Source: Escherichia phage vB_EcoP_CU10EC
Reading direction: 5' to 3' (one strand)
DNA: 64,000 nt
Sequence record: PQ435408.1
Shown: positions 21,305 through 22,559 of the stretch, piece by piece
Numbering within the stretch: the stretch's first letter is position 1
Layout: the number at the start of each line of letters is the position of its first letter
Program-made: the position numbers and the translations under genes
Notes under the pieces: generated by a model
The model's input: the letters and a program-made list of their open reading frames with translations, nothing else
Databases searched by the model: none
Told to the model about the DNA's origin: nothing

Positions 21305-21543
21305 AGTACTATTTACCCATAGCTGGGAGGCTTTTGGTTCTTACCACGAAGACAGTCCACGCTGACTAGGCTTGGGATTGATAGTCCCGTTCCTGTGGTA
21401 ATTACTCAGGCTAGGATTTAAGGAGTTCCTATTCTCCAGCGAAATTCCCGTCGAGGGGAATAACAATACAATAGCAGTCACTGGACTGTCTTACCAGTGT
21501 TGTCTTTAGAGTGCAATGCAATCAGGACTATGTTACTGCTGAA

Positions 21544-21623
21544 TGGGTGTCCACTACTGGATTTGAACCAGTGACTTTCCGATTATTAGTCAGTTGCTTT
21601 CCCCGTCTAAGCTAAGCGGACAT
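21544..21623 (-). tRNA. tRNA-like gene, possible anticodon AAU, needs confirmation
   Basis: 7-bp acceptor, D-arm GCTT/AAGC, T-arm ACTGG-TTCAAAT-CCAGT, encoded CCA; anticodon stem has an A-A mismatch, loop CUAAUAA. Confidence 0.45.
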
Positions 21624-21627
21624 AATA

Positions 21628-21703
21628 TGGTTACCCGGACAGGATTCGAACCTGCATCCTAGTTGGTTTACTAGTGGGGCTTTGCCGTTAAGCCTACCGG
21701 GTA
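21628..21703 (-). tRNA. tRNA-like gene with atypical anticodon arm
   Basis: 76 nt with perfect acceptor TACCCGG/CCGGGTA, D-arm GGCT/AGCC, T-arm GCAGG-TTCGAAT-CCTGT and CCA; anticodon stem pairs only with a 6- or 8-nt loop. Confidence 0.45.
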
Positions 21704-22201
21704 ATAATTGGTGAGTCATGCCAGGCTTTAACTGGCTCCTTCTTCGCAATCCTTACATACCCCTACATAATTATTGCGTTAAGCTTTTTTGTTTAAGTTT
21801 AAGTGAAGGCGTTCTTGCTGACTCATAATAGAGTGGGCGTTTGACGAATGACTAGTTCGTTACTACCCGTTTGCCATAAGTACCTGGCGACTTTGGTTTG
21901 AGGTGGGAGTCCGAGTCCTGTACAGCCTTACCGTTCACACATTGGCAGCGTATCTAGAATTGCACTTCCGGCAACTGGATTTAACTGTTACACCTCAAAT
22001 AGGCAGTGGGGGATGGAATTGAACCATCAGTATTAAGTCTTATTCGTGCACCAAGCACGCTAGTAGATTACTCTACCGGAGGGAATCGAACCCTATCTAC
22101 TTCACCAGACCCACCATAATTCTTCCAATTTAGAGTAGCACTGTCACGGTGGGTGCTTTAAATGCCGGGAAACATTTAAATATACAATGCTACTTTGAAT
22201 T

Positions 22202-22290
22202 GGTTATCAGTGAAGGATTCGAACCTCCGGTTGGAGTCTATAGCTTACCGCAGCAGCCCTCCAATCTAGCGGTGTCACACTTAGTCCAAA
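22202..22290 (-). ncRNA. tRNA-like element (T-loop and CCA present, 5' half unresolved)
   Basis: GGTTCGAATCC T-loop motif and ACTGATA-A-CCA 3' end on - strand; no matching 5' acceptor strand found within normal tRNA length. Confidence 0.25.
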
Positions 22291-22326
22291 CTTGAACATG
22301 TCAAGCCATCTCGTGCAACTGATAAT

Positions 22327-22395
22327 TGGTTCCGGCGTCTGGACTCGAACCAGAACACTCACGTTTGTGCACAACGCTAGTACCTACACCGGAAT
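22327..22395 (-). ncRNA. Truncated tRNA-like element lacking a D-arm, possible anticodon GCA
   Basis: Acceptor TCCGGTG/CGCCGGA, T-arm TCTGG-TTCGAGT-CCAGA, CCA; only 66 nt before CCA, 9 nt where the D-arm should be. Confidence 0.3.
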
Positions 22396-22559
22396 TGATT
22401 GCCAGGGATTCCACCTGGCTCCATCTGTTTTTATAGTCACTCAGATATCGTCTGGACTTGTTGTGGTAGCCGGTACTGATCTCCGGCATAAGGCGCTTAT
22501 TCGGCGGCGTCGAGCTTGCTTATTCGCTTGAGCCATCCTCGTGAGTCAGCCACGTCCCA

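Follow-up and report, generated by a model that had tools for sequence, protein, structure and literature searches.

Some phage transfer RNA (tRNA) genes keep an acceptor end and a T arm and fit the rest of the cloverleaf poorly; are such genes tRNAs, remnants of tRNAs or RNAs of another kind? The question is raised by a minus-strand stretch at about 21540-22400 of Escherichia phage vB_EcoP_CU10EC (sequence record PQ435408.1; the 64,000 nucleotides (nt) analysed are called the window). An initial annotation, folded by hand, had described a cluster of tRNA-like genes with non-canonical anticodon arms and one member without a D arm. This is borne out by ARAGORN, by Infernal with the Rfam models and by covariation; the programs neither turned all the elements into standard cloverleaves nor left the stretch without a call. 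Five genes were delimited, named E1, E2, E3/4, E5 and E6 from 5' to 3'. It is fairly probable, judging from comparisons with related phages, that they form the 3' part of a polycistronic cluster resembling a tRNA operon, which would yield one decoding tRNA (E6) and four non-decoding tRNA mimics processed by RNase P. These four odd RNAs, of 67, 76, 114 and 124 nt, are best read as having kept the top half of a tRNA with no usable anticodon loop, and are probably tRNA look-alikes and not decoders.

The 64-kb window contains six T-loops of the form GGTTCRANTCC, every one of them on the minus strand and within 21559-22351. The number expected from shuffling is 0.14, none of 100 shuffles reached six, and the motifs are distributed over the five genes. 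Scanning for a T arm together with a complementary acceptor strand gave a perfect 7-bp helix for four T-loops and a helix with six of seven pairs for a fifth. A perfect 7-bp acceptor followed by A-CCA was found at 21628-21703 (76 nt), 22327-22393 (67 nt) and 22201-22324 (124 nt). For the first two of these the canonical T-loop, acceptor and encoded CCA had been recognized initially; the third had been overlooked. In its default mode ARAGORN makes a single call, a tRNA-Ile with anticodon AAT at 21544-21622. With the Rfam tRNA model (RF00005; membership threshold applied, 29 bits), Infernal scores 21548-21621 at 58.8 bits and 21631-21703 at 36.7 bits. No further convincing family was returned by an Rfam scan of 21200-23750 at E<=10, and E1, E2 and E3/4 have no match there, RF00005 included. 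Several minor matches were set aside: one to plastid-ycf2 is the antisense of a tRNA, one to the His leader (28/49 bits) is the terminator region, and those to mir-278 and YrlA are noise, the latter (RF02553) scoring 18 bits against a threshold of 69, with E = 1.3, and straddling E5 and E6. A transfer-messenger RNA (tmRNA), ordinary or permuted, was also rejected, being represented only by overlapping low-threshold ARAGORN calls with 'tag not identified' and by nothing in default ARAGORN or Rfam.

All five units share one design. An acceptor helix of 6-7 bp is stacked on the T stem (11-12 bp in total), the T-loop U54 U55 C56 R57 A58 (UUCRAnU) is closed by G53-C61, and the 3' end is RCC(A), which gives every unit a top half shaped like a substrate of RNase P and the CCA enzyme. 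These are the features of tRNA itself: a 5-bp T stem (4 bp in the one extra T-like arm), the UUCRAnU loop, a discriminator purine and (N)CC(A). ACCA is encoded in three units and NCCA partly encoded in the others. Each unit has U at -1, the preferred RNase P context, and AU-rich spacers, only 2-6 nt separating E1 from E2 and E5 from E6. A GG dinucleotide lies 10-19 nt from every 5' end, invariant within each family, where it could play the part of G18 G19 in forming the elbow with the T-loop. Across families, the tRNA top half is conserved and the bottom half is different. Measured against RF00005, E6 belongs fully to the family and E5 attains the gathering score; the departures are the absence of a 7-nt anticodon loop from E5 and of a D arm from E1, and the extra helices of E2 and E3/4.

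E6 (21545-21621) is a canonical tRNA-Ile. Its Rfam alignment is full-length (model positions 1-71), with G1 at 21621, the discriminator A73 at 21548, a full cloverleaf, U33, A37 and the 7-nt loop C-U-A-A-U-A-A. The loop and the unusual anticodon AAU had been read correctly from the sequence at 21544-21623; the poor cloverleaf ascribed to it had not, as both programs find a standard one. Irregularities are limited to an A27.A43 mismatch and, in this phage, U29.G41. The latter pair covaries among 13 variants, being C-G or U-A in relatives and C-G in most. E6 does not encode its CCA and would need the CCA-adding enzyme of the host: A73 is followed by CCC here, whereas phage SP5M has ACCA and others have ACTT. 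The anticodon is AAT in all 13 variants. The closest tRNA in 5,426 E. coli genomes is a tRNA-Ile with GACT-CAT-AATC where E6 has GACT-AAT-AATC, and the gene of phage 05F01 has the same CAT form. By this comparison E6 is a lysidine-type tRNA-Ile2(CAU) body with C34 changed to A. The determinants recognized by E. coli isoleucyl-tRNA synthetase are A73, C4-G69, U12-A23, C29-G41, A35, U36, A37 and A38; E6 has A73, C4-G69, U12-A23, A35, U36, A37 and A38, with U.G at 29:41 in this phage. Since position 34 is an A, not G or lysidine, in a tRNA-Ile2-type body, E6 should read AUU without lysidine. This is the commonest Ile codon of the phage (per 1000: ATT 34.8, ATC 16.1, ATA 6.3). A tRNA-Ile(AAU) of this kind is a natural single-base conversion of a lysidine-type tRNA-Ile and bears on decoding rules. 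A relative of E6 in phage Bas96 (locus L018, 2290-2374) keeps the 3' half and has a different, longer 5' part; it is 85 nt long, is annotated as tRNA-Val and scores 54.4 bits. It indicates recombination within the tRNA genes of the cluster.

In E5 (21628-21703, 76 nt) a tRNA body carries a closed hairpin where the anticodon arm would be. The acceptor (7/7), D stem (4/4) and T stem (5/5) are perfect and are followed by A-CCA, and the minimum free energy (MFE) of the single sequence has z = -2.87. Infernal fails to align 18 nt of the anticodon arm. Canonical tRNAs of related clusters reach 50-77 bits with the Rfam tRNA model, the E5 family 33-42 bits. For the 22 nt that separate the D stem from the T stem only two pairings exist, CUAGU-AAACCA-ACUAG (5 bp, 6-nt loop) and one of 4 bp around an 8-nt loop. 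The same two loops are drawn by ARAGORN under relaxed settings, as they had been by hand. The hairpin is displaced 2 nt in the 3' direction relative to a canonical anticodon arm, with a 3-nt connector and a 3-nt variable region, and has no U33 in either register. An anticodon arm proper, with its 5-bp stem at 27-31/39-43, 7-nt loop and U33, next to a variable region of 4 nt or more, is thus absent. Among seven Gamaleyavirus variants the arm is invariant except for one C-to-U change in the loop, and in the same variants the acceptor and T stems change with compensation (three compensated pairs in the body).

More distant homologues have the same body and another hairpin that begins in the same alignment column: CCCAG-AACUUAAGA-CUGGG in Enterobacter phage SABI and CCCAA-GACUUAAGA-UUGGG in Klebsiella myovirus 05F01, both with 9-nt loops. 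In Klebsiella phage KP8 the 'tRNA-Leu' is the E5 homologue, and its arm reads as a 7-bp stem with a GGCA tetraloop. Loops of 6, 9 or 4 nt on one conserved body are not what a decoder would show. E5-type genes occur in Gamaleyavirus, in SABI (whose record gives no taxonomy) and in 05F01. The 248-kb 'partial genome' of Enterobacter phage SonariX (L035) was not counted as an independent occurrence because of its SABI-like layout: its tRNA region shares the feature layout of the 76-kb phage SABI, and the record may be a composite assembly. The KP8 locus (L021) holds, at 1914-1988 and 2168-2243, a 'tRNA-OTHER' and the E5-homologous 'tRNA-Leu'; the former has a normal acceptor and T arm and an anticodon arm CACGAC-ACAG-GUCGUG (6 bp and a tetraloop), so 'closed' anticodon arms recur. 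In 05F01 (L022, 2464-2510) an element of about 47 nt resembling a minihelix lies between tRNA-Asn and the E5 homologue. It comprises the acceptor GGUGACU/AGUCACC, a 3-bp T-like stem with the loop UUCGAUU, and then C-CA.

E1 (22327-22393, 67 nt) is the member without a D arm, as had been noted for 22327-22395. It consists, in order, of the acceptor UCCGGUG/CGCCGGA, 9 nt (UAGGUACUA) where the D arm should be, a hairpin (GCGUU-GUGCACA-AACGU), a linker of 6-7 nt, the T arm and A-CCA. Eleven distinct variants were aligned, from N4, SPSP, six further Gamaleyaviruses, KP8, Klebsiella phage cp20 (Efbeekayvirus) and 05F01 (Stephanstirmvirinae). The 9-nt loop is invariant among them, 98.9% of pair cells are standard and 6 of 17 pairs are compensated. 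Four of these belong to the five pairs of the hairpin, the fifth of which changes from G-U to A-U: the stem is GCGUU/AACGU here, GUGUC/GGCAU in N4 and ACCCU/AGGGU in cp20. When the register is slid, pairing falls to 21-47%. The hairpin loop keeps GUGCAC and has 7 nt in four variants, this phage included, and 6 nt in seven, including N4. A configuration with 8/4 pairs in acceptor and T stem, suggested by RNAfold, was rejected as pair 41:57 covaries and supports 7/5, and an extended hairpin (12-15 with 36-39) is broken by single-sided changes. ARAGORN does not call E1, as a D-replacement tRNA or otherwise, in its default or mitochondrial (-mt) mode. Of the two tRNA features tested, a D arm and a score of at least 29 bits, E1 has neither. 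In the record of one relative it is annotated 'tRNA-Undet(nnn)'. Homologues are found in Enquatrovirus, Gamaleyavirus, Kaypoctavirus, Efbeekayvirus and the myovirus 05F01; the E1 pattern also matches ten IMG/VR contigs, all of 70-76 kb, and has zero matches in 185,579 bacterial and archaeal genomes. A hairpin, GCCAGG-UGGAAUC-CCUGGC, lies in the 75-nt leader ahead of E1 (22394-22470). It is conserved beside E1 in N4 and KP8, but cp20 and 05F01, in which tRNA-Tyr immediately precedes E1, do not have it.

The loop of E1 includes the 6-nt palindrome GUGCAC, and that of SABI-type E5 includes CUUAAG within its 9 nt. A kissing-loop interaction through such palindromes is an intriguing possibility. 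Against it count the absence of the palindrome from Gamaleyavirus E5 and from the KP8 variant, and the fact that the E1 palindrome is equally readable as two more stem pairs and a UGCA tetraloop. Pairing of the E5 loop ACCAA with an E3/4 hairpin loop, UUGGU, was rejected, as the genes do not co-occur across phages.

The two remaining T-loops noted initially, at 22005-22015 and 22081-22093, had been thought to have no acceptor pairing. Both lie in one 114-nt RNA, E3/4 (22002-22115), closed by a 6-bp acceptor-like helix (22115-22110 with 22010-22005) in which four of six pairs covary: GGUGGG/CCCACU here, GACGGG/CCCGUU in other Gamaleyaviruses and GGCAAG/CUUGCC in KP8. The segment 22005-22015 holds in fact the 3' strands of the closing helix and of the T stem, the true T-loop being at 22015-22025. 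The true T arm (22028-22012) abuts the closing helix, and inside are three hairpins, a T-arm-like one (22094-22080), one with a GUAA loop (22076-22063) and a third at 22059-22045. The 3' tail is G-CC with no A (R-CC). Of its 25 pairs 11 show compensation, with examples in all five helices, and the paired share of cells is 99.6%. The same helices emerge from RNAalifold and, separately, from the MFE structure of the single sequence.

E2 (22201-22324, 124 nt), detected by the acceptor/T-arm scan, is separated from the CCA of E1 by two bases. It combines a 7-bp acceptor (UAUCAGU/ACUGAUA) with the T arm GGAGG-UUCGAAU-CCUUC and a 3' A-CCA. Its interior holds a 5' hairpin (22307-22289) and a 6-bp arm around a D-arm-like hairpin, GGCU-GCUGCGGUA-AGCU; the latter is a better explanation of that hairpin than a likeness to the 530 loop of 16S ribosomal RNA, which was also considered. 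The acceptor reads UACCAGU/ACUGGUA in other Gamaleyaviruses and UACUGGU/ACCAGUA in KP8. Acceptor, 5' hairpin and T stem covary, with five compensated pairs and 99.7% of cells paired. Almost no variation is seen in the 60-nt interior, and this holds for 12 metagenome contigs as well. E2 and E3/4 are both outside a cloverleaf of 70-95 nt with a single anticodon arm, having 124 and 114 nt and, in the models tested, six and five helices.

The four odd RNAs are under purifying selection on their helices. Compensatory changes occur in all four, which are therefore not decayed pseudogenes, and conservation over several phage genera with such compensation marks them as real RNA genes; in slid-register controls the pairing collapses to 20-65%. 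None of the four has a match in 5,426 E. coli genomes or in 185,579 species genomes, and a host origin was discarded on this account.

Could the odd elements nevertheless be decaying tRNA pseudogenes, or recombination debris with no function of their own? The cluster is certainly a mosaic, its modules having been shuffled: E2 comes before E1 in KP8, the Bas96 gene is a hybrid containing the 3' half of E6, the Gamaleyaviruses have one canonical tRNA in the cluster against four in N4, and the T arm of E2 is identical at 18 of 19 positions to that of N4 tRNA-Ser. However, neutral decay would break helices, and 98.9-99.7% of cells are paired with 5-11 compensated pairs per RNA. The parts that are not tRNA-like, namely the E5 arm, the D-replacement loop of E1 and the core of E2, are the most conserved, and E1 has been retained in four genera of Schitoviridae and an unrelated myovirus. 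Debris is thus an improbable explanation. Still harder to sustain is that the odd RNAs are unusual decoders, E1 a D-armless tRNA-Cys(GCA), E5 a frameshifting or quadruplet reader with its 8- or 9-nt loop, and others tRNAs with short introns. The E1 loop of this phage, G-U-G-C-A-C-A, does contain U33 and GCA, and an 8-nt loop can be drawn for E5, the SABI-type homologue of which has one of 9 nt. Yet a tRNA-Cys(GCA) is disfavoured by the 6-nt E1 loop of N4 and most relatives, by C at position 37 and by the discriminator A73, where cysteinyl-tRNA synthetase needs U73; nor is E1 called by ARAGORN in its mitochondrial mode. E5, for its part, is without U33 in either register on a body that tolerates 6, 9 or 4 nt. 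Intron-containing tRNAs are drawn by ARAGORN with the -i option, with a 45-nt insert in E2 and one of 28 nt in E3/4. They were rejected because the inserts are conserved (that of E2 is the most conserved part of the RNA) and contain covarying hairpins, and because no protein-splicing pathway is known in bacteria for such a tRNA insert. Decoding by the odd RNAs is accordingly very unlikely.

A somewhat more credible alternative, though an unlikely one, is that the odd RNAs serve as punctuation only, giving entry to RNase P or RNase E and protecting 3' ends, with no role for the released pieces. Such use of tRNAs is well known in mitochondria and bacterial operons. U at -1, the AU-rich spacers and the tight packing would all suit it, as would the interleaving of the units with other structured RNAs (X1 and the hairpin at 22194-22134, described below). 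But a minihelix of acceptor and T arm would suffice for this purpose, and the conservation and covariation of the bottom halves would be left unexplained. This applies to the E1 hairpin and the loop GUGCAC that it carries, to the three hairpins inside E3/4 and to the 60-nt invariant core of E2; the transfer of single modules between unrelated phages must be added.

Several points weigh against a cluster of one decoding tRNA and four non-decoding mimics, which is the reading preferred here. The covariation is drawn from 9-11 fairly close sequences per family. The two inner helices of E2 never vary and so have no covariation support, and an RNAalifold alternative pairs the last two acceptor pairs of E2 elsewhere. 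A34 is unusual in a bacterial Ile tRNA, and the charging and decoding of E6 are predictions. Conservation of structure by itself also fits signals for processing or stability. Finally, no specific host target is suggested by the sequences, and the anti-defence gene nearby is circumstantial.

The window is the genome of a Gamaleyavirus (G7C-like and N4-related; Schitoviridae, subfamily Enquatrovirinae), and the 1.5 kb around the RNA cluster are 85-98% identical to those of dozens of Gamaleyavirus Escherichia phages. The plus-strand gene for the virion RNA polymerase (8762-19225; 3,487 amino acids (aa)) is followed by minus-strand genes. Among these the cluster occupies an interval of about 2.4 kb with no credible open reading frames (ORFs), between ORFs 23697-24140 and 20790-21266. 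The former stands in the place of N4 gp47, matching its position after a RuvC-like gene, and its family search gave no match; the latter, which adjoins the cluster downstream, encodes a protein of the N4 gp49/Sf6 gp66 family (PF13876). An intrinsic terminator at 21304-21273, with a 13-bp stem and a U run, marks the 3' end of the cluster and adjoins ORF 20790-21266 on its upstream side. A short minus-strand reading frame at about 23530-23690, directly downstream of the gp47-like gene, is present in N4 too. Judged by eye, the N4 counterpart looks like a small hydrophobic frame, probably for a small membrane protein, and the truly non-coding region therefore begins near 23530.

The same gp47-gp49 interval carries tRNA genes in other Enquatrovirinae, and by synteny the flagged stretch belongs to the tRNA cluster of the N4-like phages. 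N4-type phages have an E1 homologue and Asn, Ser, Thr and Pro tRNAs between the gp47-like and gp49-like genes; in SPSP, one of these, the interval is annotated with Asn, Ser, Thr, 'tRNA-Undet' and Pro, and in KP8 with Asn, 'OTHER', Pro, Gln, 'Leu' and a second 'OTHER'. About 1 kb downstream of the cluster, on the same strand, is a gene for a 210-aa Tad2-like (Thoeris anti-defence 2) protein (19698-20330; PF11195, E = 1.6e-26). Together with 20790-21266 it appears to make up an accessory or anti-defence neighbourhood.

The proposed course of events starts with co-transcription on the minus strand as far as the terminator. Host RNase P, RNase E and 3' exonucleases would release a decoding tRNA and four small, stable RNAs from the precursor, and the host CCA-adding enzyme would complete those ends that are without A76. 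The tRNA-Ile(AAU) would supply AUU decoding. The odd RNAs would be natural tRNA scaffolds, the bottom half of which is a different structured module in each family, and the top half would secure processing, stability and the binding of tRNA-handling proteins. They could act as decoys or sponges for factors that recognize the body or the end of tRNA, such as defence tRNases and toxins modifying the acceptor end, or they could alternatively be carriers displaying variable hairpins. A host-directed role, as decoy or scaffold, would be the most likely. It is favoured because single modules have moved between unrelated phage families, because the modules are absent from host genomes, and because the cluster lies in a variable accessory region beside the Tad2-like gene. 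Only tentatively, and with rather more doubt than confidence, can this be taken a step further: the phages of the N4 group and at least one unrelated myovirus would carry an undescribed class of anticodon-less RNAs, built on the tRNA scaffold, that act as top-half decoys against host tRNA-directed immunity or capture a tRNA-handling enzyme. There would be four families, a D-armless one of 66-68 nt, one of 76-78 nt with an exchangeable closed hairpin on its body, the 114-nt RNA with two T-loops and the 124-nt RNA. The targets could be nucleases or modifiers of the acceptor end or CCA tail, or tRNases that recognize the tRNA body.

Parallels for such RNAs exist, and E1, E2 and E3/4 belong with none of the tRNAs, tmRNA, YrlA or the D-armless tRNAs of mitochondrial type. 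In kind and setting the nearest analogues are species 1 (rnaC, 139 nt) and species 2 (rnaD, 119 nt) of phage T4, stable RNAs cut with eight tRNAs from a 1.75-kb precursor. They are alike in size and in their place in a phage tRNA cluster, and rnaC has a canonical T arm, as do the N4-group RNAs. The latter have cleaner 7-bp acceptors and encoded ACCA and come from different phage families; comparison of rnaC and rnaD with the RNAs of the window revealed no homology, only 11-nt matches that include a T-loop match to rnaC. The T4 RNAs have no known function. The D-armless mitochondrial tRNAs (metazoan tRNA-Ser(AGY) and those of nematodes) have the same outline as E1, with an acceptor, a short D-replacement loop, a hairpin and a T arm. 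Unlike E1, they decode, with 7-nt anticodon loops and dedicated translation factors; E1 does not keep a 7-nt loop across its homologues, most phages having 6 nt.

In the non-aminoacylated tRNA mimics of viruses and cells, such as the TMER vtRNAs of murine gammaherpesvirus 68 (MHV68) and mascRNA, and in the engineered 'tRNA scaffold' with which RNA is expressed in E. coli, the top half is used for RNase P and CCA processing and for stability. As in the phage RNAs, another module is fused to the anticodon end or takes its place. These examples are eukaryotic or artificial and have no homology to the phage RNAs, the uncharged state of which is a supposition. The acceptor/T-arm mimics of the tRNA-like domain of tmRNA and of the YrlA module have a reduced D region and no anticodon arm, as in the odd RNAs, from which a tag reading frame, pseudoknots and a Ro-binding stem are absent. 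The tRNA-Other of Bacillus cereus and polycistrons of allo-tRNA-like genes near toxin-antitoxin genes are suspected of regulatory and not decoding functions (PMC5389517). These are likewise polycistronic and irregular, but they keep cloverleaves and anticodon loops, with 8/4 or 9/3 pairs, whereas the covariation in E1 (41:57) supports 7/5.

Other structured elements share the array. X1 (21893-21997), a conserved RNA of about 100 nt that is not tRNA-like, lies between E3/4 and E5. RNAalifold on seven sequences, including N4 and SABI, gives 30 pairs, 12 of them compensated. Its closing stem is UGAGGUG/CACCUCA here, UGGGAUG/CAUCCCA in N4 and CAGAGUG/CACUCUG in SABI, and it matches no Rfam family. 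A rod-like hairpin between E2 and E3/4 (22134-22194) has a 10-bp stem AGUAGCAUUG/CAGUGCUACU around an 8-bp hairpin UUUAAAUG/CAUUUAAA; KP8 has GGUAGU/ACUACC at this site, which suggests covariation. Upstream of E1, in the ORF-free stretch at about 22400-23530, are two 64-nt direct repeats (22594-22657 and 22909-22972, 77% identical) and a 19-nt repeat (22584-22602 and 22779-22797, 95% identical). This 1.1-kb repeat-bearing stretch may hold further paralogues of non-coding RNAs; Rfam at E<=5 over 22650-23750 returned no match. Large ornate phage RNAs such as GOLLD and ROOL typically lie beside tRNA genes. In N4 (L019, about 2578-2682), between the E1 homologue and tRNA-Pro, a T arm UUAGG-UUCGAAU-CCUAA ends an 18-bp continuous stem with no CCA, and a similar element, a T arm on a long stem, occurs at about 5308-5415 of locus L026. 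These are another kind of T-arm-containing RNA in the clusters.

The cluster is real and falls under a known theme, non-canonical RNAs in phage tRNA clusters, of which it is a variant. A search of the literature found no description of these phage RNAs; the KP8 paper could not assign two of its six 'tRNA genes'. Records of relatives in GenBank, annotated with tRNAscan-SE, list homologues of two of the odd RNAs as 'tRNA-Undet(nnn)' or 'tRNA-OTHER'. In the same records E2 and E3/4 were not seen annotated as RNA genes, and in some of them E2 is covered by ORFs for hypothetical proteins. In dozens of genomes of coliphages and Klebsiella phages that are candidates for therapy, the five genes for the most part lack annotation or are hidden under spurious 'hypothetical protein' ORFs.

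tRNA has recently become a main battleground between bacteria and phages, with PARIS, retron-Eco7, OLD, bacterial Schlafens, Cas13a and Cas12a3 among the systems that target it. The phage answer known so far is to provide replacement or nuclease-resistant decoding tRNAs. Stable non-decoding mimics, if that is what the odd RNAs of the N4 group are, would be a different kind of answer, and they would offer function-testable relatives of the species 1 and 2 RNAs of T4, the role of which has been open for about 50 years.

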